Of a stretch of 64,000 nt of DNA, positions 4,489-36,992 are shown piece by piece. Under the pieces are notes generated by a model, which saw nothing but the letters and a program-made list of their open reading frames with translations, was not told where the DNA came from and did not search any database. Location: assembly GCA_963730915.1 (NCBI GenBank), contig CAVSTR010000004.1, forward strand, positions 535,014 through 599,013. The letters run 5' to 3'. This DNA comes from an uncultured Gemmatimonadales bacterium. Its GTDB lineage: Bacteria > Gemmatimonadota > Gemmatimonadetes > Gemmatimonadales > GWC2-71-9. The position numbers were made by a program, and so were the translations under genes. Each line of letters begins with the position of its first letter. Within the stretch, counting starts at the first letter, position 1.

Positions 4489-4767
4489 ACAGTGCGAACT
4501 TTGGCACGCGTGTAGTCGGGCCGCTACAGCACGTGATCACGAGCAACAATCTCGAGGTTCAGCGCCACACCGTTGGCTGACGCCCGAGTAAGCTGAGATC
4601 ACCGAACAGCTTGTAAGTAGTTGTGATGCTCCTCACCTGAGCAACTGACGGGTGGCGTACCTCTTGCCCGTCAGCACTCCGAATTCCTCTTCATCCCTGC
4701 ACAACTGAAGGCAAGCCTCTGATCCCGGAGGCTTGGGTGCGGACCTACTCCGACTGGAGCAGTCGCG

Positions 4768-5982
4768 ATGCGGATCCTGGTGCTGAACTACGAGTATCCA
4801 CCACTGGGTGGCGGAGCCGCGGTAGCGACAGCCGCGGTGGCGCAGGGTCTCGCCGAGCGCGGCGTGCAAGTGGATGTCGTTACTGCTGGGACGGGCACCG
4901 CTGCCGATCGTTGCACTCCCGAGTCGGGGCATGAGCGATTCGAACATCCAGGTCTGAGGGTCTTTCGCGTCAGAAGCAGCCGTACCGGCGTGCACCAGGC
5001 AGGCATGGGTGACGCCGCGAGCTACCTGATAGCGGCCCTGCCGCTGATTCGACAGCTGATGCGCACCCACGCGTACGACGCGATCCACGTCTTTTTCTCG
5101 CTGCCCACAGGCGCACTGCTGCCCCTGCTCGACGTGCGCGACACCCCGGTAGTGGTCTCGCTGAGGGGCTCTGATGTTCCGGGCTACGATCCACACAATC
5201 GCCCCCTGCAACTCGCCCATTCTCTGCTCGCGCCGCTGACCCGCTGGATCTGGCGACGGGCCGATCGGGTCGTCGCGGTCTGCGAAAGCCTGGGCCGGCT
5301 GGCTCTGCACACCTGTCCCGATCTTCGCTACAGCGTCGTGCCCAATGGTGTAGACCTCTCGCTCTTTCACCCTCGTACCGACTCACGGCAACCCGGACCG
5401 ATTCGGTGCCTCGCCGTGGCCCGGCTCATCGAGCGCAAGGGATTGGGCGACCTCATCCGCGCCATGGCTCTGCTCGACCGCGGACGGTTTCAGCTGGAGA
5501 TCGTGGGCGGCGGGTCCGACGAGGTGATGCTGCGGGACCTCGCCGCGGAGCACGGGCTGGCGGAGGAAGTCCGGTTCATGGGGCCACTGCCGCGTGCCGA
5601 AGTCGCTCGACGTTACCGGGCCGCAGACATGTTCACCCTTCCTTCTACAGCCGAGGCGTTCGGCAATGTGTTCGCGGAGGCGCTGGCGTCGGGGCTGCCT
5701 ATCATCGGCAGCTCGATCGGTGGAATCCCTGATCTGGTGGAACACGGAATCAATGGCCTGCTGGTCCAACCCGGCAACATCGAAGCGCTGGCCGGGGCAA
5801 TCCGATATCTCGCGGATGATCCCGAGCTCAGGCTAGAGATGGCGCAGAGGAACCGCGCCAAGGCAGAGGCAAATCTGGAATGGTCGCAGGTGACCCGTCG
5901 CTACTTGGCAACCTATGAGGCGATGCAGAACCGGCGCCCTGCCGGCGCGCTGGTCGCCAAACCAACCGTGAGCGTCTCATGA
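4768..5982 (+). CDS. glycosyltransferase family 4
   Basis: MRILVLNYEYPPLGGGAAVA N-terminus and EAFGNVFAEALASGLPIIGSSIGGIPDLV region typical of GT4. Its stop overlaps the next start. Confidence 0.85.
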   Translation: MRILVLNYEYPPLGGGAAVATAAVAQGLAERGVQVDVVTAGTGTAADRCTPESGHERFEHPGLRVFRVRSSRTGVHQAGMGDAASYLIAALPLIRQLMRTHAYDAIHVFFSLPTGALLPLLDVRDTPVVVSLRGSDVPGYDPHNRPLQLAHSLLAPLTRWIWRRADRVVAVCESLGRLALHTCPDLRYSVVPNGVDLSLFHPRTDSRQPGPIRCLAVARLIERKGLGDLIRAMALLDRGRFQLEIVGGGSDEVMLRDLAAEHGLAEEVRFMGPLPRAEVARRYRAADMFTLPSTAEAFGNVFAEALASGLPIIGSSIGGIPDLVEHGINGLLVQPGNIEALAGAIRYLADDPELRLEMAQRNRAKAEANLEWSQVTRRYLATYEAMQNRRPAGALVAKPTVSVS

Positions 5983-7256
5983 ACAGTGTTCCGTTTTGGT
6001 TGACAGTGGACGCGGCGCGCACTTTCGCCGCGCTGCACCTGGACAACTGCGCTGTTGATGAGCTGGCCCGCGGCCGGTTGACGCGGCTGCTGTTCGATGC
6101 GGCACGCAACAACGCCTTCTACGGCCGCAGGCTGCAGGACGCCGGGATCGAATGGGCTGACCCGATTCTTTGGCTCGATCCCTATCGCGCACTGGCAGCA
6201 CTCCCGCCGGTCTCGAAGCTCGAGCTGCGGCAGGCTGGAGCGAATGCTCTGACGGGTGGACAGGTCCGCCGTGAGTGGCTCTCCTCTGCGTCGTCGGGAT
6301 CCACTGGCGAGCCATTCAGGGTCTACTATGAGCCCCGCGCGTGGGCCCGGCTGAAATACGCGGTGAAGCTTCGTGCGCGAAGGGCGTGCGGGCTCGGTCC
6401 CACAGACCGGGTGGCGATCCTCGACACGTCCAGACCATCAGCCCAGTCGCCGCTGCAGAGAAATCTCGGCTGGTCCCGCATCAGCGTGCTGCAGCCGGCC
6501 TCAGCCATGGCTGATGCTCTCGTCGCCTTCGCCCCAGATGTGATCTACGGGCTTCCCTCGGCTCTGCTCGAAGCCGGACATGCACTCCAGGCTCGCGGCA
6601 GCAAGCTGGATCTGAGCATGCTGTTCACCAGCGGGGAGCTGCTCAACGGATCCCGCGCTGCGTTGAAGACTCTGTACGAAGCGCCCGTGTATGACATCTA
6701 CGGCACCTCTGAAACCAAGGAGATCGCCTGGCAGTGCCCGGAAGGTGGTATGCACCTGAACTCGGACGTGGTTCGGCTGGAAGTACTGGACGATGCTGGA
6801 CGCACCCTACCGGCCGGCGAAGAGGGAAACCTGGTGGCCACCTTGCTCGTGAATCACGCCATGCCGCTGATCCGGTATCTCACCGGCGACCGCGGCGCGC
6901 TGTTGTCGGGGCGGTGCAGCTGCGGCCGTTCCTCACCTCTGCTTGGGGTGGTGAGCGGTCGGCTCGCGGACATGCTCGTACTCCAAGGCGGTCAGCGTAT
7001 CTCCCCCTATGCGCTCACCTCCGCGCTGGAACGGGTCGACGGATTACTCCGCTACCAGGTCAGTCAGCTCGACCCCGTGCGGCTTCGGGTACGTGCCATC
7101 GCTGAAGGCGCCGCTAATCGGGAGCGGATCGCGCATGAGATGCGTACGGCGCTGCGGTACGATGTCGCTCCGTTCATCGATGTCGATGTGGAGTTTGTCG
7201 ATCGGCTTCCCACCGGGCCCAGAGCGAAGTTCCGGGTGGTGGAGCCGCTCCAATGA
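5979..7256 (+). CDS. PaaK / coenzyme F390 synthetase / CapK-like adenylate-forming enzyme
   Basis: SSGSTGEPFRVYY AMP-binding motif and YGTSE. Size and two-domain layout match phenylacetate-CoA ligase-like proteins. It has 4-nt overlaps with both neighbours. Confidence 0.75.
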   Translation: MNSVPFWLTVDAARTFAALHLDNCAVDELARGRLTRLLFDAARNNAFYGRRLQDAGIEWADPILWLDPYRALAALPPVSKLELRQAGANALTGGQVRREWLSSASSGSTGEPFRVYYEPRAWARLKYAVKLRARRACGLGPTDRVAILDTSRPSAQSPLQRNLGWSRISVLQPASAMADALVAFAPDVIYGLPSALLEAGHALQARGSKLDLSMLFTSGELLNGSRAALKTLYEAPVYDIYGTSETKEIAWQCPEGGMHLNSDVVRLEVLDDAGRTLPAGEEGNLVATLLVNHAMPLIRYLTGDRGALLSGRCSCGRSSPLLGVVSGRLADMLVLQGGQRISPYALTSALERVDGLLRYQVSQLDPVRLRVRAIAEGAANRERIAHEMRTALRYDVAPFIDVDVEFVDRLPTGPRAKFRVVEPLQ

Positions 7257-8482
7257 CGGCTCCTGGTGCGATCATCATTGGAGGCTATGCCAACGGAGTG
7301 AGCGCCGTGCGTGGTTTGGCTCGAGCAGGGGTGCGAACGGCGGTCATCCTCACCAAACCGCACGACATCGCCCAGCACTCGCGCTATGCCCATGAGGCGC
7401 ACCCGGTCATGGATCTGCCGCAGCGCGCGGATGGGATGCTCGAGCTACTCCACCGTCATGCGGCGCGGTGGGCCGGGTGGGCGATCATTCCCACCAACGA
7501 CTATGCACTGACTGCCCTGGCGGAGCACCGCGAGATGCTCTCGCGTTGGTATCGAATAACCGTGCCCGATCCGGAAACCGTGAAGCGCGTAGTAGACAAG
7601 GGCGTGACCCAGCAGCTGGCACGGGAAGTCGGGGTAGATGTCCCTCGCTCGTATGGGCTGGCTTCGGAAATCGATGTCACCCGGCAAGACATCTGCTACC
7701 CGGTAGTAGTGAAGCCGTTGGAAAGCGCCCGGTTCTGGGAGACTTTCGGCAAGAAGCTGATCGTGGCGCGGACACGGGCTGAGCTGATGTCCGCCGTCAT
7801 TCAGGTGCGGCATACGGATATCGCTGCGGAGGTTTTCGATCTGGTTCCCGGTGCCGATGACCAGTTCTTCAACTACACCGTGTACATGGACCGGAACAGC
7901 CAGCCGGTCGCGGAGTTCTCGTTCCGGAAACTTCGTAAGGCCCCGCCGTACTACGGCGTAGGACGCGCGGCCCAAGTCGCAGACGCCCCTCACCTGCGTG
8001 AGCCGACGATCGCACTCCTCCAGCGAATCGGCTGGAAAGGCATTGCGAGCGCCGAGTACAAGCTGGACCCCCGTGACGGCCGTTACCGGCTCATGGAAAT
8101 CAATGGCCGCTGCTTTCTGACCCATGGCCTCCCTACTCGTTGCGGCGTGAACTATCCGCTCCTTGCGTGGCGCGAGCACGCGATGGGGGAGACGGTCAGC
8201 GCCAAACCGAATGATTGGAACGGTGTTTGGCTTCACCTGCACGCGGATCTGTTGTACACCGCGGTCCAGGAGCGGGGGGAGGAGTGGAGCTGGCGCGACT
8301 TCGTTCGCAGCTACCGCGGGCCCTGGGTCGATGCGGTATGGTCGCCGAGTGATCCGCTGCCGTTTCTAGCCCAATGGGGAGGCACGGCGCGCAAGGCCTT
8401 ACGCGGCATAGGCGATGCGCGACAGCTCGAGGAGGTACGCCGACGGTTCCAGTCCATGCCCGCACCCATGCCGGAGTCTTGA
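7253..8482 (+). CDS. ATP-grasp carboxylate-amine ligase (COG3919 / D-aspartate-ligase-like)
   Basis: Rossmann-like pre-domain IIIGGYANGVSAVRGLARAGV and ATP-grasp core YPVVVKP...AEYKLDPRDGRYRLMEINGR. Confidence 0.7.
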   Translation: MTAPGAIIIGGYANGVSAVRGLARAGVRTAVILTKPHDIAQHSRYAHEAHPVMDLPQRADGMLELLHRHAARWAGWAIIPTNDYALTALAEHREMLSRWYRITVPDPETVKRVVDKGVTQQLAREVGVDVPRSYGLASEIDVTRQDICYPVVVKPLESARFWETFGKKLIVARTRAELMSAVIQVRHTDIAAEVFDLVPGADDQFFNYTVYMDRNSQPVAEFSFRKLRKAPPYYGVGRAAQVADAPHLREPTIALLQRIGWKGIASAEYKLDPRDGRYRLMEINGRCFLTHGLPTRCGVNYPLLAWREHAMGETVSAKPNDWNGVWLHLHADLLYTAVQERGEEWSWRDFVRSYRGPWVDAVWSPSDPLPFLAQWGGTARKALRGIGDARQLEEVRRRFQSMPAPMPES

Positions 8483-9414
8483 TGAGATCAATCCACAAGC
8501 GGTCGGTCCCGTTGCCGCACCCGCTCACTCCATATCCGGAGCTGATCGTCAACTTCTGTCCGACAGGCATGATTCCGACCAAGGCCATGACACCGCACGT
8601 GCCTATCACGCCGGACGAGGTGATCGACGACGCGTGCCGGGCCCTCGAGCTGGGCGTCGCCATCGTGCACTTGCACGCGCGCGAGGCCGATGGATCGCCG
8701 ACGTACCGGGGCGAGATCTATGAAAAGATGATCCTCGGCATACGGAGACACTTCTCGGACGCGGTCATCTGCGTGAGCTGTAGCGGACGGAACTATCCGG
8801 AATTCGAGCAACGCAGCGAGGTGCTGGAGCTCAGCGGAGCCGCCCGACCGGACCTCGCCAGCCTGACACTCACAAGCCTGGATTTTCCCACCGGGACCAG
8901 CCAGAACGCACCGGATATGGTGCTGGCGCTGGGCGAGAAGATGGTTGCGCGGGGAATCAAGCCTGAACTCGAGTGCTTCGACTTCGGGATGATCAATGCA
9001 GCGAATGTACTCATCGGAAAAGGGCTGCTGGGAGAACCGCCGCACTACTTCAACCTGCTGCTGGGGTCGCGCTACTCGGTACCCGCCACTGCCCGCCACC
9101 TCTCCAACATGATCGAGGATCTGCCGCCCGATTCCCTCTGGTCGGCAACCGGTATCGGGCTGTTTCAGCTGCCGATGAATGTGCTCGCCATCGCGATGGG
9201 TGGCCACTGCCGGGTGGGGCTGGAGGACAACATCTACCACGGCTTTGATCGCGCAGAGCTGGCCACTAATGCGGGCCTGGTCGGGCGGGTAGCGCACATC
9301 AGTGAGACGTTCGGCCGACCGCTCGCCAATTCCACCACAGCGCGTGCACTACTCGGTCTGGGCCGCTCCGCTGGACGGGAACAACTCGCACGACTGGAGG
9401 CTATTCGCAGATGA
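8482..9414 (+). CDS. BKACE family enzyme (3-keto-5-aminohexanoate cleavage enzyme-like, DUF849)
   Basis: IVNFCPTGMIPTK, VAIVHLHAREADGSPT and GGHCRVGLEDN motifs. ATG 8482 overlaps the upstream TGA by 1 nt. The ORF-track start 8374 is upstream read-through. Confidence 0.8.
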   Translation: MRSIHKRSVPLPHPLTPYPELIVNFCPTGMIPTKAMTPHVPITPDEVIDDACRALELGVAIVHLHAREADGSPTYRGEIYEKMILGIRRHFSDAVICVSCSGRNYPEFEQRSEVLELSGAARPDLASLTLTSLDFPTGTSQNAPDMVLALGEKMVARGIKPELECFDFGMINAANVLIGKGLLGEPPHYFNLLLGSRYSVPATARHLSNMIEDLPPDSLWSATGIGLFQLPMNVLAIAMGGHCRVGLEDNIYHGFDRAELATNAGLVGRVAHISETFGRPLANSTTARALLGLGRSAGREQLARLEAIRR

Positions 9415-10751
9415 TCTCTGCCTCGCACTTCGTTCGGGCCACGCTGGCATTCCGGAGGCATCCAGGTGCCTCGCCTGCCGAGCTCAAGGAGTTCCAGGAT
9501 GCCGGGCTCCGGCGGCTGGTCTGCCACGCCTACGAAACAGTTCCATTCTACCGCAAGCTCTTCGATCGTCACCGGCTGCACCCGCGCCACATTCGGGGAA
9601 CTGTCGACCTCGATCTCATTCCCACTGTCACCAAACAAGAACTCCGATCTCAGGCTCTACGTAACGTGGTGGCGAGCGGACTCGATCCGGCGCAACTGCT
9701 GACCGCTCGAACCAGCGGGTCGTCCGGTGAGCCGTTCGTGATCCGGCGAACCTGGACCGAACAGAGCCTGCAATACTTTCTCCGGCTGCGGGCATACGGC
9801 TCACTCGGTGTCCGATTAGGTGATCGGATAGCAACCGTGGGGCTGGTGCGCCCGCCGAATCCGTCGGATCCCAAGGTGATCGGACGTGCGCTGCATGCAA
9901 CAGGATTCAAGCAGACTCTCAAGATCGACGGCTTTCAGGATCCCTCGGCTATCGTGGACCAGCTGGAGGCATATCGGCCGGACATCATCACGGGGATGCC
10001 GGGAATGCTCTGCCGGGTGGCCGATCATCTCTTGGGCCAAGAGGAGCGGAACGTGAGGCCGCGTCTCCTCATTGTGGGCGGCGAGGTGCTCACGCCGCTA
10101 ATGCGACGCCGTCTCGGGGAAGGGTTCAGCGCACCGGTTCGAGAGACATACGCCAGCCATGAATTCCCACTCCTTGGCTGGGAGTGCGCTCGTGGAGGTG
10201 AATTCCACACCTGTGACGATGGCGTGATCCTGGAAGTGCTTCATGAGGGGCGACCCGCCAGAGAAGGCGAGCGCGGGGAAGTTGTAGCCACCAATCTGCA
10301 TGCGTACGCCATGCCTTTCATCCGTTATCGGCTCGGCGACATAGCGACCAGAGGAGGACATCACCCGAATTGCGGCCAGCCTTTCTCGAGCATTCGAAGC
10401 ATTCAGGGCCGCATGATCGATTATTTCCCGCTGTCCGACGGCCGAGTGATCCACCCGTACCAGATCCTTTCCAGCTTCATTGCCGGCGGCGACAGCTGGA
10501 TCAGACAGTACCAGCTTCTGCAGGAACGTGAAGATCGCATCGTTCTTCGGGTGCTGCCGACGGAGGCACCGGGCTCAGAGCGTCTGGCCGCGCTGAAGCA
10601 ATCAGTGCTTTCACTACTGGGCCCACAGGTGGATTTCCAAGTACAGCTGGTGGCCGACATTCCGCTCGAGGAAACCGGCAAGTTCCGCCCCTCGCGTTCA
10701 CTGGTGCGCTCGACCCCACCCGAATTTGCGGTGGATGCGATCCGTGTCTAG
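9411..10751 (+). CDS. second PaaK/F390-synthetase-like adenylate-forming enzyme
   Basis: TSGSSGEPFVIRRT and ETYASHE motifs. Paralogue of 5979..7256, with a 4-nt overlap with the upstream gene. Confidence 0.75.
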   Translation: MISASHFVRATLAFRRHPGASPAELKEFQDAGLRRLVCHAYETVPFYRKLFDRHRLHPRHIRGTVDLDLIPTVTKQELRSQALRNVVASGLDPAQLLTARTSGSSGEPFVIRRTWTEQSLQYFLRLRAYGSLGVRLGDRIATVGLVRPPNPSDPKVIGRALHATGFKQTLKIDGFQDPSAIVDQLEAYRPDIITGMPGMLCRVADHLLGQEERNVRPRLLIVGGEVLTPLMRRRLGEGFSAPVRETYASHEFPLLGWECARGGEFHTCDDGVILEVLHEGRPAREGERGEVVATNLHAYAMPFIRYRLGDIATRGGHHPNCGQPFSSIRSIQGRMIDYFPLSDGRVIHPYQILSSFIAGGDSWIRQYQLLQEREDRIVLRVLPTEAPGSERLAALKQSVLSLLGPQVDFQVQLVADIPLEETGKFRPSRSLVRSTPPEFAVDAIRV

Positions 10752-10794
10752 CCACTCTCTTGTTAATCGAAAGTCCAGTTCGCTCCAGATCTTC

Positions 10795-12090
10795 ATGCAC
10801 TGCGCCACCTCGGTCGACTACCTCGCCGAGCTCAATGCGTCGGTCCCTGGAGTAGAGCACTACGCGGAGCGCGTGCTGCTGCTGGCCGAGCACAACGACA
10901 TCGTGTGTGTGCCGGAAGAGATCGATCCCGACTATCTGACCTACCTCGCAGAGCTCGGACTCGGACCCGCCGCCCGCAATGTGCTGGTGGTCTCACGGTT
11001 CGACGGTGGGAACACCCAGGCCCCTCTCTGGCGAAGAATTCTCGACAGCGATGAGGCCCTCGGCGCGCTGGCTTGCCTGATCGGCGCCCATGGATCTGCC
11101 CGGATCCAGCCGTTTATCGCGTCGCGCGGACAGTTCACGCTGGCTGCTGCTCTGGAACAGAGAGCGGGCGTCCCGGTGCGGGTGCACGGCGGGGATCCCG
11201 CTGTAGTCGCCTATGCCGACCGCAAGGATCACATCAGGGCCAAGGCTCTGGAGCTGGGGATTCCGGTTGCACCAGGCGAGATCGTCGACCTCACGGCGGC
11301 AGGAGGGCAGGAGCACGGTGCCACTATGCTGCGTCAGGCCATGGAGCGGCACACCGAGCTCACCGGCCGGGTCATCGTGCGCGGCGCATCCGGAGCGGCC
11401 GGCTCAGCGACCTTTACCGCCGGGAACCATCACCAGAGGAGTGACCTGGCGAATCGGTTGGCTGCATCGGCGGAAAACCAGATTTACCTGGTCGAATCGA
11501 TGGTGGATGTCACCGTGTCACCCAATGTCCAGATGCACATCGACCGGCAGGTTTCCGGCATTCGTTGTGGAGGGATGACGGACCAACGCTGGGATCGGCC
11601 CCTGGTTCACGGCGGGAATGTGTTTCCGTCTTCGGCCCGGCGGTCTATGGAAATGCTGCGATGGGCGCGAATGCTGGCCGAGTGGCTCAACACCCATGGC
11701 TATGTAGGAGTGGCCGGGTTCGACTTTATCGAATACGAGGATGCCTACGGGGAGCCGCAGGCGCTTCTCGCGGAGGTAAATCCCAGGACCAATGGGGCCA
11801 CCTATCCGCTGCGGCTAAGGCGGCGGTTGAATGTGGCGCAGCGTGAAGCCGGATTCCCGGAGATCCGTGCGTTTGTGTCGGGCACGATCCAGACCGAGGC
11901 GCGGACCTTCAGCGAGTTGCGTGATGGCTGGGACGACCGCCTGTTCTGTCCCTCCACCGGCAGCGGGCTCGTTCCCTACATGCCGGGCTTTCTGCCCCAC
12001 GGCAAATGCGGAGTCGTAGCTCTCGGCGGTACGCGGGCGGAGGCCGAGGCGTTGTACCGTGAGGCTGGCGTCGCGGCCCAACTCGCATGA
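10795..12090 (+). CDS. ATP-grasp-fold ligase with pre-ATP-grasp N-domain (possibly PGM1-like peptide ligase family)
   Basis: RVIVRGASGAAGSATF, YLVESMVDVTVSPNVQMHI and GVAGFDFIEYEDAYGEPQALLAEVNPRTNGATYP resemble ATP-grasp nucleotide/Mg sites. Start ATG 10795 was chosen; TTG 10726 or ATG 10735 are also possible. Confidence 0.5.
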   Translation: MHCATSVDYLAELNASVPGVEHYAERVLLLAEHNDIVCVPEEIDPDYLTYLAELGLGPAARNVLVVSRFDGGNTQAPLWRRILDSDEALGALACLIGAHGSARIQPFIASRGQFTLAAALEQRAGVPVRVHGGDPAVVAYADRKDHIRAKALELGIPVAPGEIVDLTAAGGQEHGATMLRQAMERHTELTGRVIVRGASGAAGSATFTAGNHHQRSDLANRLAASAENQIYLVESMVDVTVSPNVQMHIDRQVSGIRCGGMTDQRWDRPLVHGGNVFPSSARRSMEMLRWARMLAEWLNTHGYVGVAGFDFIEYEDAYGEPQALLAEVNPRTNGATYPLRLRRRLNVAQREAGFPEIRAFVSGTIQTEARTFSELRDGWDDRLFCPSTGSGLVPYMPGFLPHGKCGVVALGGTRAEAEALYREAGVAAQLA

Positions 12091-13127
12091 CGAGTCTCGC
12101 TGAAGTTGCTCCGGCCGGGCCGCGCCGGCCCAGCCGGTCGCTGATCGCCGTGGTCGAGGAGCAGTTGATCATCCCCTCCTACGCCTCGACCTGGGCGTTT
12201 GCCACGATCGCCGCTCACCGCGCGTCCGCTTTGCCCCTGCAACTCGACGGAGCCGGGCATCGTCGCACAATGGAGCTCGACGGAGAAGCCATCCGGATGT
12301 TGACGGTGGGGCGCCGGAAGCTGCTCGACCCGATTGTCTCCGGTCTCTTCGGCACCCTTCCGGATTCCATCCCCGAAGGTCGTCGGCGTACCTGGAATCC
12401 GGCGTACTTGCGAGATGATCCGGCCGATCTCGTGGTGGCGGAGGTGCATCGCTGGATGGCTCCGCGATTTCGGGAGGACGGTTGGGTCATCATGCCCCGC
12501 ACGGTCCGGTGGCACGGGGAGCTGGCCACGGTTCCTCCACGGTCGCGCAGCAAGAGCCTGCAAGCGAACCTGGCAAAGCTTCGGAAGCAGAAGTTCAGTC
12601 TGGTGCAGGGCACATGTACCGAGGACTGGGAGGAGTTCTACCAGACGATGGTCGCGCCCCAGGCACTGGCTCGCCACGGGAGCACGGCCTGGGTTCCATC
12701 TCCGGCGTTCCTCAACGCGGTGGCGAAGCGTGGCGTCCTGCACTTTGTGGTGGAGGGCGGCGTTCGGGTCGCCGGTAGTTGCTCGATCACATATGGCGAC
12801 ACCGTCTGGTTTCCTCTGCTGGGTGTCCGCCAGGGAGACCAGCAATTGCTTCAGCGCGGCGCCAGCGTGGCGGCGCTCGCTTTGCCGATCGAGTGGGCCC
12901 GTGCCAACAACTTCCGGCGAATCGATCTGGGCCGAACGGGATCATTCGTCAACGACGGGCTCCAGCAGTACAAGCGCAAGTGGGGCTTCTACCCGGTTCC
13001 GGACCCTCTGTCACTCGTGGTGGCGATTCGGGCCCGGACGCCTGCTGCGCGGAAGGTATTCGCTCGAGAGCCCGTACTGGCAGAGACCAGCACCGGCCTC
13101 GAGACCTACGCCGGCGAGATGGCGTGA
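12087..13127 (+). CDS. FemAB-like / GNAT-fold acyl- or aminoacyl-transferase
   Basis: GVLHFVVEGGVRVAGSCSITYGDTVWFPLLGV..ALALPIEWARANNFRRIDLGRT..LQQYKRKWG resembles the FemAB/BioF2-like acetyltransferase fold. It overlaps both neighbours by 4 nt. Confidence 0.5.
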   Translation: MTSLAEVAPAGPRRPSRSLIAVVEEQLIIPSYASTWAFATIAAHRASALPLQLDGAGHRRTMELDGEAIRMLTVGRRKLLDPIVSGLFGTLPDSIPEGRRRTWNPAYLRDDPADLVVAEVHRWMAPRFREDGWVIMPRTVRWHGELATVPPRSRSKSLQANLAKLRKQKFSLVQGTCTEDWEEFYQTMVAPQALARHGSTAWVPSPAFLNAVAKRGVLHFVVEGGVRVAGSCSITYGDTVWFPLLGVRQGDQQLLQRGASVAALALPIEWARANNFRRIDLGRTGSFVNDGLQQYKRKWGFYPVPDPLSLVVAIRARTPAARKVFAREPVLAETSTGLETYAGEMA

Positions 13128-14290
13128 CCGCGTTCGCTCCTCCGGCAACGGCTCTCCCCGCCGTTCGACTGCTGCCCGGGGCGAGCGAGGTATCAGCGGC
13201 TGATTGGAACCGGCTCGCGCGCCGCGGCTTCCATCTGCATGACTGGTCCGTCGCGGCGGAGAGCTCGGGGTGGATGCCGCGCCATGTCGCTGTGGAGCAA
13301 GCCGAAGGCCTCTGCGCAGTGATACCCGCCTATCTGACTGACAGCAGCAGCATGCACGACCTTCACGACCGCTGGCTCGGGCCGCTCAGTGGTGCGGCAT
13401 CCATGGCCGGCGTCGAGTTGCGTCCGATCATTTCGGTGCAAGCGCCCTTTGCTCTGGTGTCGGAGCCGCTGGGAGACCCGGCATGGCTCTCCTCTCAGCT
13501 GTTGCACCGGGTATTCGAGACCCTCGAAGCCACCGCGATCGAGGACGGCGCCAAGGCTGTGGTGTGGCCCGCCGTGGACCCGGGCTCAACCGGGGTGCTC
13601 CGGGTCGCGGAGGAGCGTGGGTACACCGCCGTCTATGGCGGGAGCACTGCAAGGCTCTCGATCGCGTGGGAGTCGTTCGATGACTACTTGTCTTCTCGCA
13701 GCAAGAGCGTCCGCCGCACGGTAAAGAATGACCTCGACGAACTCGAATCAACCGGCCTTCGGGTGGAGACAGTCAGTCACTATGAAAGTGCGGTTCCCGC
13801 AATGACTGCTCTCTTCTTCGAATCGTTCCGACGCCGCAACGGAAAGGACGCTCCGGTCCAGCCGGAGTTCTTCAGTCGATTGTCACTGCGAGCTTCCAGC
13901 CGGATCCAGGCGCAGCTCACGTGGAGCGACGCCCGCCTGGTAGGCAGCAGTCTCAACCTGAGCACAGCCCAGGTTCTCGAAGGAACCCTGAGCGCCTTCT
14001 CCCCGGATCATCGCTCCGGCGCTGCGTACCGCAACGATCTGTGCTATGAGCCGATCCGGATCGCCTGCAGAGAGGGAATTGCCGCCATCGATCTGGGTGC
14101 AACGGCGCTGTACACCAAAATCCTCAGAGGTGCGCGGCTGCGCCGCCGCATCACGCTTCTCAAGGGCACGACCGGCATCCTGCACCGGAGTTTCGGCATC
14201 CTCGGCAACCTGGTGGCTCGCCGCACCGAATGGAAAGAGCGCCGTGCGCTCGGAAGTCTCTGGCACAATGACCAGGCGGAAGGGTCATGA
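13124..14290 (+). CDS. FemAB-related GNAT-fold protein (COG3146/DUF482-like)
   Basis: GTG 13124 overlaps the upstream TGA (GTGA). WNRLARRGFHLHDWSVAAE..YLTDSSSMHD..RRNGKDAPVQPEFF resembles FemAB-related proteins of exopolysaccharide loci. ORF-track start 12779 is read-through in the neighbour's shadow frame. Confidence 0.5.
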   Translation: MTAFAPPATALPAVRLLPGASEVSAADWNRLARRGFHLHDWSVAAESSGWMPRHVAVEQAEGLCAVIPAYLTDSSSMHDLHDRWLGPLSGAASMAGVELRPIISVQAPFALVSEPLGDPAWLSSQLLHRVFETLEATAIEDGAKAVVWPAVDPGSTGVLRVAEERGYTAVYGGSTARLSIAWESFDDYLSSRSKSVRRTVKNDLDELESTGLRVETVSHYESAVPAMTALFFESFRRRNGKDAPVQPEFFSRLSLRASSRIQAQLTWSDARLVGSSLNLSTAQVLEGTLSAFSPDHRSGAAYRNDLCYEPIRIACREGIAAIDLGATALYTKILRGARLRRRITLLKGTTGILHRSFGILGNLVARRTEWKERRALGSLWHNDQAEGS

Positions 14291-14979
14291 ATCGCCGCGG
14301 AATTGGGAAGTATCTCACCGATGCAGCGACGCTGCCGCGCGATGCGGCCTCGGCGTGGCGCACGGATGGAGCAGCGGGCGTATGGACCGAGCTCCGCCGC
14401 AGAACCGTAGACCGGGCGGCCGGGTACGTGCGGTACATCGTTCTGGAAGCGGACCTCGAGAACTTCAGGCGAGTTTCACCTCCCGAGGGCGTCGTGATCA
14501 GGCCTTTTGCCGGCTCTGACTGGAGCTCGCTCGGGCCGATGGTCCCCTGCCGCGTCGCTCCGATTCTGACGGCAGCCCGTCGGGCTGGAAGAACCTGCCT
14601 CGTCGCATGGCGCGGGTCCGAGGCGATCGGCTACATCTGGTTTTCGCCGGCTGTGGAGCAGCGGTACGAGAACTTCGCGCTGTCGCTTCCGCCGGCCACC
14701 ACCTATCTCTGGCAGATTCAGGTCACTCGCTCGGCTCGCCGCCAGGGCCTGGGTGCTGCTCTGATCAGCGCCGGCTTCGAGCAGGCCGCACAACAGGGAT
14801 TCCGACGCAGCTGGATGATCACGAGCCCGTCCAACAGGGCGGCTCAGAAGGCCGTGACCACGATCACGACCGGCCGGGTGCTCGGAAGCATCAGGCGCGT
14901 GAAGGTCGCGTCGTGGATGCAAACCCGGTATGCGCCGCTGCAGCATTCACTCCCACTTCAGTCCTACATCCGCCCATGA
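14287..14979 (+). CDS. GNAT family N-acetyltransferase
   Basis: Motif A region QVTRSARRQGLGAALISAGFEQAAQQG, with ATGA overlaps. Confidence 0.6.
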   Translation: MNRRGIGKYLTDAATLPRDAASAWRTDGAAGVWTELRRRTVDRAAGYVRYIVLEADLENFRRVSPPEGVVIRPFAGSDWSSLGPMVPCRVAPILTAARRAGRTCLVAWRGSEAIGYIWFSPAVEQRYENFALSLPPATTYLWQIQVTRSARRQGLGAALISAGFEQAAQQGFRRSWMITSPSNRAAQKAVTTITTGRVLGSIRRVKVASWMQTRYAPLQHSLPLQSYIRP

Positions 14980-15659
14980 AAATTGCGTGGAAGCTCGGTA
15001 AGTACGTGGCCGACTGCCGCACGCTCCCGGCCGACGCGGCGCTCTCATACCAGCTGACCGGTATGCGTGGCGTCTGGGACGCTGTGGCAGACCGGACGGT
15101 TCACCGGCTGGTGCGCATCGGTCACGTGGTCGTGTTTGCCCAGCCGCTCGATTCAGCCCCCGAGATTCCTCCACCCCCGGGTGTGGCCATCAGGCCGCTG
15201 TCCGCGGAGGATTGGGCCGCCTTATCGAAGATCGTAACTCAGCGGAGTCTCGCCTTGTTCCGTCAATTGGCGGCCAATGGCCGGCATGGTCTGGTGGCGT
15301 GGCGCGGAGCCGATGCAATCGGGTACGGCTGGGTCGCCGAGCGGATCGGGCCGGATGTCACAGCCTGCCCGCTGGCCTTGCCTCCGCACGCGGCGTATCT
15401 CTGGGATTTGTACGTGGTGCCGGCCGAGCGTTCGAATGGAGTCGGCTCGGCGCTCGCGAGTGCCCGGGTACAGCTGGCTCGAAATCTGGGGTTCAGGGAA
15501 GGCTGGCGGATGATCGCCCCATCGAACGGTGCGTCGCTGCGCACGCTCGCGAAGACCGCCATGAACACCAGAACTGTAGGGGAGCTTCGGTTCATCAAGA
15601 TCTTTGCTTCGATTCACACTCGCTTTACGCCGGCCGCTTGCGGAACTCCGGCCACTTGA
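14976..15659 (+). CDS. GNAT family N-acetyltransferase (tandem paralogue)
   Basis: YVVPAERSNGVGSALASARVQLARNLG. The N-terminal MKIAWKLGKYVADCRTLPADAA aligns with MNRRGIGKYLTDAATLPRDAA of the upstream gene. ATG 14976 overlaps TGA 14977-14979. Confidence 0.6.
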   Translation: MKIAWKLGKYVADCRTLPADAALSYQLTGMRGVWDAVADRTVHRLVRIGHVVVFAQPLDSAPEIPPPPGVAIRPLSAEDWAALSKIVTQRSLALFRQLAANGRHGLVAWRGADAIGYGWVAERIGPDVTACPLALPPHAAYLWDLYVVPAERSNGVGSALASARVQLARNLGFREGWRMIAPSNGASLRTLAKTAMNTRTVGELRFIKIFASIHTRFTPAACGTPAT

Positions 15660-16474
15660 GGGTTGATCACGGGCAGAACCGGGCGGCCACCCGGCTGAAT
15701 GTGGTTGTCATCACGTCTGCCGCAATGGGTGTGGAGCTGGCCGGCAAGCTGGCGCTGGTGCCGGAAATTCGCTCGCTGACCGTGGTAACCACGCGCGTGA
15801 TGCCGGGCTCGCGTAGCCTCCGGCAGAAGCTGCGCGGCATCTATCAAGCAGACGGCCTTGCTGGTGTCCTGCGGTCAGTTGCCTCTCGGATCCGCGGCTT
15901 CTTCCCAGGTTCTGACGTGAGTCTGGCGCAGCGCGTCGCCGAGCGCTGTCCGACCGCGCGGCACCTGCATTGCGACGACCTGCACACGCCCGAGTCCCTC
16001 TCCCTGTTGAGAAACCTGGGAGCCGATTTGGGAGTGGTATTCGCCGCGTATCGACTGAAGCCCTCTGTCTTCACGATTCCGCGACTCGGCTGCTTCAACC
16101 TGCACCTCGGACTCGCTCCCGAGTTTCGCGGATCGTCCCCCGCCTTCTATGAGATGCTGGAGGGCGTGCCCACCGTTGGCGTCACCATCCACCGGATCAA
16201 TGAAGGGCTCGACTCGGGTCCCATCATCAAGCAGGAATCCTTTCCCATCGACCTGGCTCCGAAGGAAGACCCTATCGCCTACCTCCGCCGTTATCAAAAG
16301 GAGGTGTTGGTTCCCAACGGCATCCGGATGATGGCTGAGGCGATCCGGGATGCTGCCTGCGGCATCCTGGTCGAGCAAGCGCAGCCATCCGCGCTACGTC
16401 CTCTGCGGCGCCGCGCGACGTACCAGCTGAAGCGTACGCTCCAGCGCCAGGTAGCTTGGAGGCGTCGATCGTAG
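15656..16474 (+). CDS. formyltransferase (Fmt / ArnA N-domain-like)
   Basis: FNLHLGLAPEFRGSSP...GVTIHRINEGLDSGPII gives the Asn-His-Asp catalytic context. TTG 15656 overlaps the upstream TGA; GTG 15701 is an alternative start. Confidence 0.7.
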   Translation: MRVDHGQNRAATRLNVVVITSAAMGVELAGKLALVPEIRSLTVVTTRVMPGSRSLRQKLRGIYQADGLAGVLRSVASRIRGFFPGSDVSLAQRVAERCPTARHLHCDDLHTPESLSLLRNLGADLGVVFAAYRLKPSVFTIPRLGCFNLHLGLAPEFRGSSPAFYEMLEGVPTVGVTIHRINEGLDSGPIIKQESFPIDLAPKEDPIAYLRRYQKEVLVPNGIRMMAEAIRDAACGILVEQAQPSALRPLRRRATYQLKRTLQRQVAWRRRS

Positions 16475-16570: not shown

Positions 16571-17464
16571 ATGTCGCCAGCGCAATCTATTCCGGCTATC
16601 ACGCCGATCGACCAGCGGGGATACGCCCACCCCGAAGTTCTCGTCTCAACCGACTGGGTAGCCGAGCATCTCGAGGATCCCCGAGTTCGCCTGATCGAGT
16701 CCAACGAGGATCTGTTGCTGTACGACACGGGCCACATTCCTGGCGCCGTAAAAGTCGATTGGACCAACGACCTGAACGACCAGTTGGTCCGCGACTATGT
16801 CAACAGCGAGCAGCTTCAGCGGCTTCTCCGCTCGAAGGGCATCAACACCGATACCACCATCGTCTTCTACGGTGACAAGAACAACTGGTGGGCGACCTAT
16901 GCGTTCTGGGTGCTGAAGCTCTTCGGCATCGAACGGATTCGCCTCATGGACGGAGGGCGGCTCCGCTGGGTAGATGAGGGCCGGCCCCTCACGACCGACA
17001 CGCCTTCATACCCTGTCGGCAACATCGTGGTGCCTCGCCGAAACGACGAGCCATTGCGTGCATTCAGGGACGAGGTGCTGGAGCATGTGAAACGGCGGGG
17101 CCAGCTGGTCGATGTACGAAGCCCGGAGGAGTTTCGCGGCGAGCGGCTGCACATGCCGGAGTATCCCAGCGAAGGGGCTGTCAGGGGCGGGCATATCCCA
17201 GGTGCCAAGAGCATACCGTGGGCCCGGGCTATCGATCCTGACACCCACACGTTCAGGCCTGCCGCTGAGCTTCGGAACCTGTATGAGAAGGAAAATGGAC
17301 TGCGACGCGACGCGGAGACGATCGCGTATTGTCGCATCGGCGAGCGATCCTCTCACACCTGGTTTGCCTTGACCTACCTGTTGGGGTTCGATGCCGTCCG
17401 CAACTATGACGGGTCCTGGACCGAGTGGGGCAATGGCGTTCGTCTTCCGGTGGAGAAGCCGTAG
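16571..17464 (+). CDS. thiosulfate/3-mercaptopyruvate sulfurtransferase (two-domain rhodanese)
   Basis: Two rhodanese domains and active-site loop [12 protein letters not shown]. Confidence 0.85.
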
Positions 17465-20819: not shown

Positions 20820-20993
20820 ACCGTCTTCCTTGTCGAGAGGGCAACCGGGGCGTGGCGGCGCGCCTGGCGCTGCTGAGCATGTTATGTACACTGGAAACCG
20901 GCAACGGATATGAAGAGGTACACCAGTATATAGGCTGAAAAGCCGTTCGCAACAGACCGCGGCTGGGGTGCGCGGCTCATCATCTATCCTTCG

Positions 20994-34727: not shown

Positions 34728-34746
34728 TGCGGCCGAGGTGCTCCTG

Positions 34747-35532
34747 ATGTCTCGACTCGACGGCAAGGTGGCGGTCATTACCGGTTCCGGAGCCGGACTC
34801 GGCGCCGAAGCCGCCAGGCTGTTTGCCCGGGAAGGCTGCGCGGTGGTGGTGAGCGACACCGACGCCACCGCGGGCGAGCGCGTGGTGGGAGAGATCAAGG
34901 CTGCAGGCGGCAAGGCGGTCTTCATCGCCGCCGACGTTCGCTCCGAGCGACCAGGTCGAGGCCTTTACGCCGGCGCCCGAAAGGCGTTCGGTCAGGTCAA
35001 CGTGCTGTACAACAACGCGGGGATGTCGCCGGGTGACGACGATGGCGTCGTCAACACCCCGGATGAGATCTGGGACCTGGTGCTCGACATCAACGTGAAG
35101 GGCGTGGCCCGCTGCTGCCGGGCCGGCATTCCCTATCTGCGGGAGGCCGGCGGCGGCTCCATCATCAACGTCGCCAGCTTCGTGGCGACGGTCGGCGCGG
35201 CCACACCCCAGATCGCCTATACCGCATCGAAAGGGGCTGTGCTCTCCATGACGAGAGAGATCGCGGTCATTCATGCTCGCGAGCGAATTCGAGCCAACGC
35301 GCTCTCTCCCGGGCCGGTGCGCACCGCTCTGCTGGAGAAGTTTCTGTCGACCGAAGAGAAACGACAGCGGCGGCTGGTGCACGTTCCCATGGGCCGCTTC
35401 GGCGAGCCGCGGGAGATCGCGCAGGCGGCGCTGTTCCTCGCGTCGGACGAATCGTCGTACATCACCGGCGCCGATTTCAGGGTGGATGGGGGGATCACCG
35501 CGGCCTACGTGACGCCGGAAGGAAAAGCGTAA
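34747..35532 (+). CDS. SDR family oxidoreductase
   Basis: [12 protein letters not shown] and YTASKGAV (YxxxK). GAGGTG SD lies 7 nt before ATG 34747. Confidence 0.85.
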
Positions 35533-35987: not shown

Positions 35988-36004
35988 CTTCGATGCCGGC
36001 ATCC

Positions 36005-36105
36005 GCCTAACAAGCGCATGCAGCTGACGGACGCTTCAGTTCTAAGGAACATAGGATATTGCGCGAGCGGCGGAGTCGCCGCGGCTGATGCGCGGTCCGT
36101 TAGAC
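36005..36105 (+). repeat. attC 1
   Basis: GCCTAAC-AAGCGCATGCAGCTG...GCGGCTGATGCGCGGTCC-GTTAGAC. Confidence 0.75.
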
Positions 36106-36197
36106 CGCGGGCGGTTGTCCGCTTCTCGCGTAGGCATTAGGAAGGAGCGCTCCCGAGCAGTCATACCACTATTTGGTCCACAGGGAGGTATTTCGCG

Positions 36198-36848: not shown

Positions 36849-36891
36849 CCTATTGTAGGGGCGCACGTGATCACCAACCACATTATGCGCG

Positions 36892-36992
36892 GTCTAACAA
36901 GCGCATGCAGCTGGCGGGCGCTTCAGCTCTAAGGAACGTTAGATAGTGTCCAAGCCGGCAAGTCGCCGCAGCTGATGCGCGGTCCGTTAGGC
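36892..36992 (+). repeat. attC 2
   Basis: GTCTAAC...GCAGCTGATGCGCGGTCC-GTTAGGC. Its R'' flank CGCGGTCTAAC is the reverse complement of the attC1 R' flank GTTAGACCGCG. Confidence 0.8.

Follow-up and report, generated by a model that had tools for sequence, protein, structure and literature searches.

The 64-kb stretch of DNA analysed here (the window), which derives from an uncultured Gemmatimonadales bacterium, carries between positions 4768 and 16474 an operon of eleven genes, G1 to G11, that is one mosaic variant of a hypervariable island at a fixed chromosomal site and not a fixed operon. Its products belong to glycosyltransferase family 4 (GT4; G1), the PaaK/CapK-like adenylate-forming enzymes (G2 and G5), the ATP-grasp ligases (G3 and G6), the BKACE family (G4), the Fem-like and GNAT transferases (G7 to G10) and the formyltransferases (G11). 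Cassettes are gained and lost at this site between housekeeping genes, a pattern that resembles that of surface-antigen loci. With about equal measures of confidence and doubt, we propose that the operon directs a cytoplasmic assembly, independent of nonribosomal peptide synthetases (NRPS), of a short aminoacyl or peptidyl decoration, capped by N-acyl or N-formyl groups, on the sugar of a lipid-linked envelope glycoconjugate.

Eleven overlapping genes under selection

The eleven open reading frames (ORFs) are consecutive and co-directional on the plus strand (Table 1). In each of them the G+C content is 0.67-0.79 at the third codon position (GC3) against 0.46-0.59 at the second (GC2), which is the coding signature of genuine genes in a genome of 63% G+C. 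The co-directional arrangement with start/stop overlaps that had been described in a first-pass annotation of this DNA was borne out: neighbouring genes overlap at 9 or 10 of the 10 junctions, depending on the start codon chosen for G6, and the G5/G6 junction is the only ambiguous one. G6 starts at GTG in the gene call of the closest relative (447 aa) and at ATG 10795 in the database call of the window's own protein.

The closest relative retrieved, a 22-kb metagenome contig (L059), has the gene order and the overlaps of the window. The two sequences are colinear at about 84% nucleotide identity, and 10 of the 11 genes could be matched, with proteins that are 76-94% identical. G11 of L059 has the TTG start seen in the window and the same product length of 272 aa, while a 659-bp stretch that contains G9 (14338-14996) has no counterpart there. 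Because the arrangement has been kept at this level of nucleotide identity, the eleven ORFs are not a chance set, and the conservation of order, overlaps and protein sequence shows that the operon is real and under selection. None of the eleven ORFs is truncated in comparison with its orthologues. No transmembrane or hydrophobic segment is present in any of the eleven proteins; all are soluble and would act on the cytoplasmic side.

A hypervariable island at a fixed chromosomal site

A search for homologues of G6 yielded 198 sequences, mostly from Gemmatimonadales metagenomes, and a scan of one genome per species gave 57 G6 loci, 40 from Gemmatimonadota and 11 from Nitrospirota. Single loci were found in Brocadiaceae, Verrucomicrobiales, Planctomycetota, a deltaproteobacterium, an alphaproteobacterium and an unclassified bacterium. 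Genes in these relatives were mapped by tblastn and phmmer together with database gene calls, as a GC3-based caller was unreliable in DNA of this high G+C content. In all 26 Gemmatimonadales loci that hold both flanks, the island lies between a gene for a DUF5916 protein and one for a protein resembling rhodanese or 3-mercaptopyruvate sulfurtransferase (3-MST), which are 2.8-14.7 kb apart; a PNPOx gene often follows downstream of the rhodanese gene. The islands range from 2 to 13 genes around a core of the GT4, the PGM1/BesA-like ATP-grasp ligase (G6) and usually one CapK/PaaK-like enzyme.

Three classes of island can be distinguished. The short class C has the order GT4-[G5]-G6-[MurF-like], and class B has the order GT4-G2-G3-G5-G6-G9-type GNAT-Wzx-like. 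Class A reads GT4-G2-BKACE-G5-G6-[MurF-like]-G7-G8-G10-type GNAT (or G7-G10-G8)-[Wzx-like]-[formyltransferase]; in one locus (L058) it is backed by an independent gene call with precomputed Pfam matches, and the gene call of L059 also agrees. All class A loci have the BKACE gene together with G7, G8 and G10, and no class B or class C locus has it. Likewise, G7 always co-occurs with G4 and G8, and G10 with G4, G7 and G8. The second ATP-grasp gene, G3, is present in only 6 of the 57 loci and in L059, and it travels with a G9-type GNAT gene, as in L005, L006, L007 and L033. The operon of the window combines the class A set with the class B markers G3 and G9; L059 has G3 without G9. The whole block is limited to close relatives, of which the closest one found has 10 genes. 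In the neighbourhood comparison suggested as a check in the first-pass annotation, its genes co-occur in dozens of Gemmatimonadales genomes.

G1 occurs in nearly all variants of the island; its identity is 35-79% over all loci and 49-79% within the Gemmatimonadales islands, and it amounts to 94% in L059. Median identity is 47% for G6 and 62% for the GT4, compared with 77% for the rhodanese-like protein; the island genes diverge faster than their flanks. The exception is the BKACE gene, the best conserved gene of the island, the identity of which (78-89%) exceeds that of the flanking genes.

Two components of related islands are absent from the window. A Wzx-like protein of 11 hydrophobic segments (Kyte-Doolittle scan, KD19 > 1.6), which matches Polysacc_synt weakly and has no NCBIfam MurJ match, is encoded inside the island in 15 loci. 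A MurF-like ligase that lacks the MurF N-terminal domain is encoded in 16 loci (13 in Gemmatimonadota, 3 in Nitrospirota); it scores 205 bits against a murF cut-off of 288.6 and matches PDB entry 1gg4 with E 1e-25. Neither has a homologue in the 64-kb window (flippase: tblastn, E 1e-3). An initiating phosphoglycosyltransferase (PGT) or a Wzy polymerase was not seen in the islands of the relatives either. The earlier statement that flippase, polymerase, NRPS or polyketide synthase (PKS) and precursor are all lacking therefore holds for the 64-kb window but not for the island in relatives, 15 of which have the Wzx-like gene.

Some Gemmatimonadales genomes carry further genes between those for DUF5916 and the GT4 (L003:4002-7134, L012:2323-4805 and L017:5415-8470); they encode a RimJ-like GNAT, a small TPR protein and a Ser/Thr protein kinase that is extended by a long C-terminal part. 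They are absent from the window.

Families of the gene products

The eleven proteins were scanned with Pfam, using gathering scores, and with NCBIfam, using equivalog cut-offs. The calls made in the first pass (GT4, PaaK-like, ATP-grasp, BKACE, GNAT, formyltransferase) hold for all eleven at the level of superfamily or family, with G7 as a borderline case. No protein reaches any curated NCBIfam equivalog cut-off, and for this reason no specific function can be transferred to any of them. Domains of NRPS or PKS (condensation, thiolation, ketosynthase) are absent from all eleven proteins in Pfam.

G1 passes the test for a GT4 enzyme, with 80.3 bits for Glyco_transf_4 (cut-off 28.5) and 133.2 bits for Glycos_transf_1 (cut-off 26.4), and carries an overlapping "GT4-conflict" Pfam match as well. 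Its best full-length matches are enzymes of the BshA, MshA and PimB types, all far under the equivalog cut-offs (BshA, 116.5 bits versus 273.7; MshA, 113.4 versus 462.5), and sequence matches in the PDB reach only E 4e-23 to 4e-21. In NCBIfam, the C-terminal GT4 half of G1 scores equally well with glycosyltransferases of exopolysaccharide (EPS) synthesis. The markers of XrtA/PEP-CTERM EPS loci, which comprise the stp2/stp3 glycosyltransferases, the amidotransferase TIGR03108 and a FemAB-type TIGR family, also stay below their cut-offs (G1, stp2 117 bits versus 409 and stp3 102 versus 442), and neither G7 nor G8 matches any NCBIfam family.

G2 and G5 belong to the PaaK/CapK/F390-synthetase branch of the ANL superfamily, as judged from their core motifs and from family hidden Markov model matches of E 1e-20 to 1e-38. 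The motifs read SSGSTGEPF, YGTSE, TGDRG and a C-terminal Lys in PRAKFR in the translation of G2, and TSGSSGEPF, YASHE (a variant), LGDIA and TGKFR in that of G5. Below cut-off, NCBIfam matches G2 to the DVU_1553-family ligase (111 bits), PaaK (71-85 bits) and F390 synthetase, and G5 to the DVU_1553 family (130 bits) and PaaK (about 90 bits). The PaaK equivalogs TIGR02155 and NF041878, with cut-offs of 646 and 700, are reached by neither G2 (70.8 and 85.3 bits) nor G5 (89.8 and 90.2 bits). A trace match of G2 to the amino acid adenylation domain TIGR01733 amounts to 16 bits, and G5 has a precomputed match to CapK_C (PF27533).

G3 is a divergent ATP-grasp protein. Residues 9-327 match the carbamoyl-phosphate-synthase-like model PRK12767 of NCBIfam (E 6e-16), the Pfam score for CPSase_L_D2 is 23.5 bits versus a cut-off of 19.8, and by sequence only biotin carboxylase is matched in the PDB, and that weakly. 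G6 has a PreAtp-grasp domain (PF18604; 47 bits, cut-off 27.5). Its AF2 model, of pLDDT 87, has as best Foldseek matches BesA (8yi6), a Streptomyces ATP-grasp peptide ligase (8ynd) and PGM1 (3wvq/3wvr), with TM scores of 0.72-0.79; the matches to PGM1 have E of about 1e-17 and TM scores of 0.72-0.76. On this model, G6 has the fold of the PGM1/BesA peptide ligases. G2 and G5 had been described, together with G3 and G6, as a duplicated PaaK plus ATP-grasp module. This description was not upheld, and a recent tandem duplication of the module is ruled out by an identity of only 33% between G2 and G5 and by the lack of detectable pairwise similarity between G3 and G6.

G4 is a full-length BKACE protein (PF05853; 263.9 bits versus 24.8, profile positions 2-274 of 274) that scores under every curated BKACE equivalog cut-off, that of Kce included (237.5 bits versus 382). 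Aligned to Kce, it keeps the metal-binding His-x-His (VHLHAR) and the GLEDN motif, but Phe replaces Kce Tyr145 (chain residue 151) and Ile takes the place of Kce Glu14. Six-frame ORFs of the related loci contain the motif KPELECFD 21 times and KPEIECFD once. The Tyr is said to be present in all canonical BKACEs, and Phe to replace it in BsfD, the chemistry of which is different (PMC12871164). G4 thus fails the test for a canonical BKACE in both the Tyr145 equivalent and the equivalog score, and as Phe takes the place of Tyr, cleavage of a β-keto acid with acetyl-CoA is not assured for G4. Three uncharacterised solved homologues (3no5, 3fa5 and 3chv) share the Phe, so that the change is a lead to BsfD-like chemistry rather than proof of it.

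The Pfam match of G7 to PF13480 is borderline (23.5 bits versus a cut-off of 22), its orthologues have precomputed PF13480 matches, and a profile search of the PDB with G7 gave no match. G7 as a paralogue of G8 is unsupported: BLASTP of the two returned nothing, and hhalign was not significant (probability 0.7 on the per cent scale, E 0.076). G8 matches PF04339 (65.5 bits versus 27) and PF13480 (38.5 bits). The top Foldseek matches of its AF2 model (pLDDT 88) are FemX (4ii9, E 1.6e-12), Sbb17/Sba18, FemA and the aminoacyl-phosphatidylglycerol synthase domain of MprF, with E to about 1e-07, and acetyl-CoA-dependent tandem-GNAT enzymes appear lower in the list. As modelled, G8 has the tandem-GNAT fold of aminoacyl-tRNA-dependent transferases, a fold that by itself cannot tell an aminoacyl-tRNA donor from an acyl-CoA donor. 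The strict linkage of the BKACE gene with the Fem-like/GNAT cassette is a lead in this respect, as it suggests for some Fem-like proteins a donor of the acyl-CoA or aminoacyl-CoA kind in place of tRNA.

G9 and G10 match Acetyltransf_1 with 48.8 and 34.1 bits, respectively (cut-off 20.7). They had been called tandem paralogues and are 36% identical; as a pair they are not kept in L059, which lacks the stretch with G9 and has a single GNAT that is 83% identical to G10. G11 scores 59.7 bits with Formyl_trans_N (cut-off 26.1), and its closest solved relatives are Met-tRNA formyltransferases, followed by FDH, ArnA and sugar N-formyltransferases. The catalytic Asn-x-His and Asp are kept, FNLHLG and EGLDSGP of G11 aligning with INSH/INVH and AGLDTGP/VGLDTGD of solved Fmt proteins. 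The equivalogs for Fmt (62 bits versus 201.5) and ArnA (43.9 versus 777) are failed, and the C-terminal tRNA-binding domain is absent, the alignments stopping near Fmt residue 211.

Table 1 Features of the operon and its flanks in the window
Feature	Position	Strand	Description
Left flank, DUF5916 protein gene	2139..4488	+	Pfam DUF5916; conserved flanking gene
Upstream intergenic, presumed promoter region	4489..4767	+	279 nt; corresponding gap 280-370 nt in relatives
G1	4768..5982	+	GT4 (GT-B) glycosyltransferase, 404 aa; core gene of the island
G1/G2 junction	5979-5982	+	ATGA
G2	5979..7256	+	PaaK/CapK-like adenylate-forming (ANL) enzyme, 425 aa
G2/G3 junction	7253-7256	+	ATGA
G3	7253..8482	+	Divergent ATP-grasp ligase, 409 aa; member of the class B cassette
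G3/G4 junction	ATG at 8482	+	1 nt in common (TGATG); alternative TTG 8479 gives TTGA
G4	8482..9414	+	BKACE-family (DUF849) TIM-barrel enzyme, 310 aa
G4/G5 junction	9411-9414	+	ATGA
G5	9411..10751	+	Second PaaK/CapK-like adenylate-forming enzyme, 446 aa; usually core, adjoins G6 across phyla
G5/G6 junction	GTG 10744 or ATG 10795	+	GTG 10744 gives an 8-nt overlap; ATG 10795 gives a 43-nt gap
G6	10744..12090	+	PGM1/BesA-like ATP-grasp amide ligase with pre-ATP-grasp domain, 448 aa (GTG 10744) or 431 aa (ATG 10795); invariant island core
G6/G7 junction	12087	+	ATGA
G7	12087..13127	+	Acetyltransf_6-type protein (Fem/BioF2-like GNAT-fold family), 346 aa
G7/G8 junction	13124	+	GTGA
G8	13124..14290	+	FemAB_like tandem-GNAT transferase, 388 aa
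G8/G9 junction	14287	+	ATGA
G9	14287..14979	+	GNAT N-acyltransferase, 230 aa; GNAT type of class B islands
G9/G10 junction	14976	+	ATGA
G10	14976..15659	+	GNAT N-acyltransferase, 227 aa; GNAT type of class A islands
G10/G11 junction	15656	+	TTGA
G11	15656..16474	+	Stand-alone formyltransferase catalytic domain, 272 aa, TTG 15656 start
Right flank, rhodanese/3-MST-like gene	16571..17464	+	Two Rhodanese domains (Pfam); conserved flanking gene

The G5-G6 pair outside Gemmatimonadales

The G5-G6 pair is kept in Nitrospirota, in one alphaproteobacterium and in one deltaproteobacterium. In a Nitrospiraceae locus (L042) it is part of a cluster of the polysaccharide type, with GT2 genes, methyltransferases, two AsnB-type amidotransferases, a MocA-family oxidoreductase, five more PaaK-like genes and a Fem-like gene; the amidotransferases are closest to the XrtA/PEP-CTERM type, with a score of 536 bits versus a cut-off of 817 for the AsnB-like protein. 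Other Nitrospirota loci add the MurF-like gene. In the alphaproteobacterium (L050), the pair adjoins a GT4 gene, another PaaK-like gene, a GNAT gene and a gene of the lipid-A-acyltransferase family (15340-16245), and in the deltaproteobacterium (L047) the gene after G6 is of the CapA-like PGA_cap type (6331-7446). Where a context exists outside Gemmatimonadales, it is that of envelope biosynthesis. A universal partnership with G6 was rejected, the tight association being limited to Gemmatimonadales, Nitrospirota and the single alpha- and deltaproteobacterial loci.

In the Brocadiaceae locus, a small radical-SAM protein (L039:1660-2364) adjoins the PGM1-like ligase. The neighbours in this locus, in L047 and in L050 may mark other uses of the PGM1-like ligase family.

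Comparison with known systems

The surface loci that vary at fixed sites in other bacteria include the O-antigen locus of E. coli, between galF and gnd, and the K locus of Acinetobacter, between fkpA and lldP. The island shares with these a fixed site between housekeeping genes, a mosaic of cassettes and a faster divergence of its genes than of the flanks. O-antigen and K loci, however, encode complete pathways (sugar-nucleotide synthesis, several glycosyltransferases, Wzx and Wzy), whereas the island has a single glycosyltransferase and mainly amide-forming and N-acylating enzymes.

A precedent for the role proposed for G2 and G5 is VpsH of Vibrio cholerae. By genetic evidence, this PaaK/CapK-like protein is needed to attach glycine, as an amide, to the L-GulNAcA residue of the bactoprenyl-diphosphate-linked disaccharide of the Vibrio polysaccharide (VPS), and the same locus encodes the acetyltransferase VpsG (PMC13463779). 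The likeness is one of family and proposed role: a cytoplasmic PaaK/CapK-like protein, encoded in a glycan locus beside GT4 enzymes and an acyltransferase, acts before Wzx to put an amino acid on a sugar. In contrast to the island, the VPS locus is a complete Wzx/Wzy locus with a PGT, a polymerase and several glycosyltransferases, and it adds a single glycine. The operon has one glycosyltransferase and lacks both PGT and Wzy, but it encodes two CapK-like enzymes and, from other superfamilies, four to five more that form amides.

In the HS:2 capsule of Campylobacter jejuni, the TupA-like ATP-grasp domain of Cj1438C amidates glucuronic acid with serinol phosphate or ethanolamine phosphate (PMC11800379). 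What this system shares with the proposed one is an ATP-grasp enzyme that amidates a uronic acid of a glycan at its C6 carboxylate while assembly takes place in the cytoplasm. The clade of Cj1438C is nevertheless a different one, TupA-like and fused to a GT2, from that of the PGM1/BesA-like G6, which has a pre-ATP-grasp domain, and from the unclassified, divergent G3, and its amine is an amino alcohol and not a peptide chain. With PGM1 and BesA, G6 shares the pre-ATP-grasp domain and the fold (TM 0.72-0.79), and the chemistry of these enzymes is an ATP-dependent ligation of a carboxylate to the amine of an amino acid or peptide; identity to G6 is only 16-20%, and the island has no precursor-peptide gene and has partners of the glycan type. 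PGM1 ligates a non-proteinogenic acid to ribosomal peptides in the actinomycete antibiotic cluster for pheganomycin.

G8 resembles FemX/FemA, the MprF domain and Sbb17/Sba18 in its tandem-GNAT fold (E to 1.6e-12, TM 0.52-0.74). The model would imply aminoacyl transfer to an amine or hydroxyl of a sugar-peptide or of a lipid head group, albeit at identities of only 9-16%, and G8 lacks the membrane domain of MprF. To our knowledge, members of PF04339 and PF13480 are essentially uncharacterised. G4 shares with Kce of lysine fermentation (PDB 2y7d) the full-length DUF849/BKACE TIM barrel, the His-x-His and the GLEDN motif, and with BsfD of flavophos biosynthesis the Phe at the Kce Tyr145 position; an insertion of about 20 residues described for BsfD (PMC12871164) is not present in G4, as far as a coarse comparison goes. 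No report of a BKACE in a glycan-type locus was found in the literature.

The first-pass annotation had named two outcomes that would speak against it, a co-occurrence of the genes in this genome only and a match to a characterised locus. The genes do co-occur elsewhere, and a characterised locus with this combination of enzymes was not found in the literature. Amino-acid decoration of glycans, CapK-like and ATP-grasp amidoligases and variable glycan loci are already known. What is new is the gathering of five to seven amide-forming enzymes of different superfamilies around a single glycosyltransferase, the presence of a non-canonical-looking BKACE in such a locus, and the cassette structure in an unstudied phylum.

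Proposed function and alternatives

In the assembly that we propose, the acceptor, the substrates, the order of the steps and the export are those that we infer from the families and their contexts. G1 would transfer a sugar, for which a uronic acid is plausible, to a lipid-linked acceptor, perhaps an undecaprenyl-diphosphate glycan made elsewhere or a membrane glycolipid. G2 and G5 would activate a carboxylate by adenylation, either on this sugar or on a building block, and join it to an amino acid through an amide, as has been proposed for VpsH. The chain would be extended through acyl-phosphate chemistry by G6 in all variants and by G3 in some, and likewise by the truncated MurF-like ligase in many relatives. 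G8 and probably G7 would then add residues to free amino groups, most likely from aminoacyl-tRNA, and G9, G10 and G11 would cap the remaining free amines with acyl or formyl groups. G4 probably supplies or remodels an unusual β-keto- or β-amino-acyl-CoA unit for the Fem-like/GNAT cassette. In most relatives the finished unit would be exported by the Wzx-like flippase, and the genome of the window would need a flippase encoded elsewhere.

This proposal is supported by the Wzx-like gene in 15 related islands and the MurF-like gene in 16 loci, by the envelope-related contexts of G5-G6 in L042, L050 and L047, by the fixed site and variable content of the island, by the intact catalytic motifs and the co-occurrence of the cassettes, and by the published precedents of VpsH and Cj1438C. 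It retains the general chemistry of the first-pass annotation, a capped aminoacyl or peptidyl branch on a sugar or lipid, which is favoured by the folds of G8 and G6, the conserved residues of G11 and the VpsH precedent; the part that has weakened is the cleavage reaction of the BKACE.

A number of observations weigh against the proposal. An initiating PGT, a polymerase, a flippase or a transporter is encoded neither in the island nor in the rest of the 64-kb window, which thus fails the test for a Wzx/Wzy-dependent locus (no PGT, Wzx or Wzy), and polysaccharide-assembly families are absent among the large ORFs scanned in the window, which are mostly housekeeping genes. The island has only one glycosyltransferase gene, no sugar-nucleotide genes and no gene for the synthesis of a uronic acid or an amino sugar. 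Its shortest forms consist of the GT4 and G6 genes, to which G5 and the MurF-like gene may be added, and a flippase gene is lacking in them, so that a soluble product would fit as well. The best full-length matches of G1, BshA and MshA, glycosylate small molecules, and the structural relatives of G6, PGM1 and BesA, come from natural-product pathways, as does BsfD, the only known biosynthetic BKACE-like enzyme (PMC12871164). A G6 homologue stands alone in unrelated contexts in Brocadiaceae and Verrucomicrobiales. Finally, the substrates of all eleven enzymes are putative, assigned from family membership at scores under the equivalog cut-offs.

Several of these observations would be accommodated by a soluble small molecule, which we consider rather unlikely and yet the most serious of the alternatives. 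The product would be a glycosylated amino-acid or peptide metabolite, such as a glycoside resembling low-molecular-weight thiols or compatible solutes, or a secondary metabolite that is secreted. A small acceptor would receive its sugar from the GT4, as with BshA and MshA, and on it a short peptide would be assembled and capped by the ligases and transferases, with neither NRPS nor ribosome involved. The eleven enzymes are indeed all soluble, the window encodes neither a PGT, Wzy or Wzx nor any other transporter, and the minimal islands of GT4 and G6 look like a self-contained two-step pathway. The full-length alignment of G1 with BshA and MshA loses some of its force through scores far below cut-off and through the C-terminal half of G1, which scores equally with EPS glycosyltransferases. 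Natural-product enzymes with the features in question do exist, namely the ligases BesA and PGM1 with the fold of G6, a BKACE-like enzyme with the Tyr-to-Phe change in flavophos biosynthesis, and the Fem-like, aminoacyl-tRNA-dependent Sbb17/Sba18 of antibiotic pathways. The deacetylase, regulator, resistance gene or exporter that is usual for metabolite clusters is absent, however, and the Wzx-type polysaccharide flippase within 15 related islands and the envelope-related contexts in the Nitrospiraceae, the alphaproteobacterium and the deltaproteobacterium also speak against a soluble product.

Modification of peptidoglycan precursors is improbable. Lipid II or UDP-MurNAc-peptide would then undergo a different or an extra chemistry at the stem peptide or cross-bridge, carried out by the Fem-like transferases and ATP-grasp ligases of the D-aspartate-ligase kind, with the MurF-like ligase and a MurJ-like flippase of the MOP family in relatives. 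ATP-grasp ligases such as Aslfm are established as enzymes that add side-chain amino acids to such precursors, and G8 has the FemX/FemA fold. The accessory ligase of the relatives is indeed most similar to MurF (205 bits; 1gg4, E 1e-25), but it lacks the N-terminal domain of MurF and stays below the 288.6-bit cut-off. MurJ is a member of the MOP-family flippases, yet the flippase of the islands is weakly of the Polysacc_synt (Wzx) type, without an NCBIfam match to MurJ. Moreover, the glycosyltransferase is a GT4 and not of the MurG type, no part in peptidoglycan synthesis is known for enzymes of the PaaK-like, BKACE and formyltransferase families, and an island that comes and goes among related species, with 2-13 genes, is unlike core wall chemistry.

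An accidental juxtaposition or decaying remnant without joint function, with some ORFs as pseudogenes or mis-assemblies, could be suspected from the DUF5916 and TonB-dependent receptor genes of the window, each split in two frames, and from split matches in several related long-read metagenome-assembled genome loci, but it is highly improbable in view of the conservation: the eleven ORFs are full length with overlapping junctions kept and catalytic motifs intact, the identity to L059 (10 of 11 genes colinear, about 84% at the nucleotide and 76-94% at the protein level) points to purifying selection, and the cassettes recur in dozens of species-level genomes.

The most far-reaching reading is a speculative one, which we think unlikely. 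The island would be a stand-alone line, independent of NRPS and ribosome, that builds a peptidoglycan-stem-like oligopeptide on a single lipid-anchored sugar, an undescribed class of surface molecule that might be called a "peptidoglycolipid". Up to seven amide-forming enzymes would take part, from five superfamilies listed as CapK-like ANL, two ATP-grasp clades, MurF-like and Fem-like; the BKACE with the Tyr-to-Phe change would make a β-keto- or β-amino-acyl block, and cassette swapping would give surface diversity at the strain level. Should the product be no more than a polysaccharide decorated with amino acids, it would extend a theme already known from VpsH, Cj1438C and the K antigens that bear amino acids, and would open no new one.

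Gemmatimonadales are abundant soil bacteria, and we know of almost no experimental study of their envelope chemistry. The island is a defined hotspot that varies between species, and it could explain surface diversity, including recognition by phages or predators and adhesion in soil. It packs poorly understood families (Fem-like proteins of PF04339/PF13480, CapK-like enzymes, PGM1-like ligases outside actinomycetes and the Tyr-to-Phe BKACE) into small cassettes that co-vary, and the presence or absence of these cassettes provides natural "experiments" for the assignment of function.

Flanking regions and other features of the window

The DUF5916 gene upstream of the operon is split in two frames near 4100-4105 in the window (ORFs 2139-4103 and 3772-4488), residues 1-652 and 654-780 being matched in different frames. 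It is an intact ORF of 775-780 aa in L058, in L059 and in a Logan contig that carries the same operon, and the split is either a real pseudogene or an indel error of long-read assembly. Split matches also occur in several related loci from long-read metagenome-assembled genomes. The region between this gene and G1 (4489-4767) contains no sigma-70-like site, Rfam match or conserved or plausible small ORF. Scans for sigma-70 promoters and terminators gave results at or under shuffled expectation, nothing of which was usable, and no regulatory RNA or tRNA was found in the window. A cluster for a peptide made on the ribosome and modified after translation (RiPP) or a PGM1-type peptide antibiotic was rejected as the principal reading: the only intergenic spaces hold no precursor ORF, and a protease or transporter is lacking. 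A ribosomal precursor peptide for the PGM1-type ligase has no room inside the operon, which has no intergenic space, and none is encoded between 4489 and 4767.

Downstream, the rhodanese-like gene (3-MST, 114 bits versus an NCBIfam cut-off of 250) is 72-90% identical in 25 loci regardless of the content of the island. It is followed by other sulfur-related genes, for a siroheme-synthase-like CbiX/TP_methylase fusion (22221-23855, minus strand) and for a sulfite/nitrite reductase (23852-25564, minus strand). A functional link of these genes to the island is not implied, as in related loci the rhodanese and PNPOx genes are found beside islands of any content. A TonB-dependent receptor gene (18170-21098, minus strand) is present as two overlapping ORFs, one for CarboxypepD_reg and Plug (19860-21098) and one for the β-barrel (18170-20212), which suggests a second frameshift in the window. 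Ten other large ORFs of the window were scanned, and the families found were sulfite reductase, siroheme synthase, ThiC, PutA-like, glutamine synthetase, M24 peptidase, beta-lactamase-fold, BNR-repeat and Ser/Thr kinase; one ORF had no match.

A region of lower G+C content (0.58 versus 0.63) at 35999-43485 contains about a dozen small, co-directional and unrelated ORFs of 104-230 aa, mostly without a Pfam match. In the ORFs adjoining this region no integrase was found: 34738-35532 encodes a short-chain dehydrogenase/reductase, and 34498-35382, 43841-44938 and 45392-46159 are without an NCBIfam match. The ORFs of the region are separated by at least nine copies of a repeat of about 100 nt without an Rfam match, for example that at 36886-36995 (TCTAACAAGCGCATGCAGC...GCTGATGCGCGGTCCGTTA). 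Four copies were folded, and in three of them the bottom strand gave a long, imperfect hairpin; two of these hairpins are closed by CTAAC/GTTAG with a 3-nt bulge. With this shape of its repeats, the hallmark of integron attC sites, the region resembles an array of integron cassettes on the chromosome, or a CALIN.

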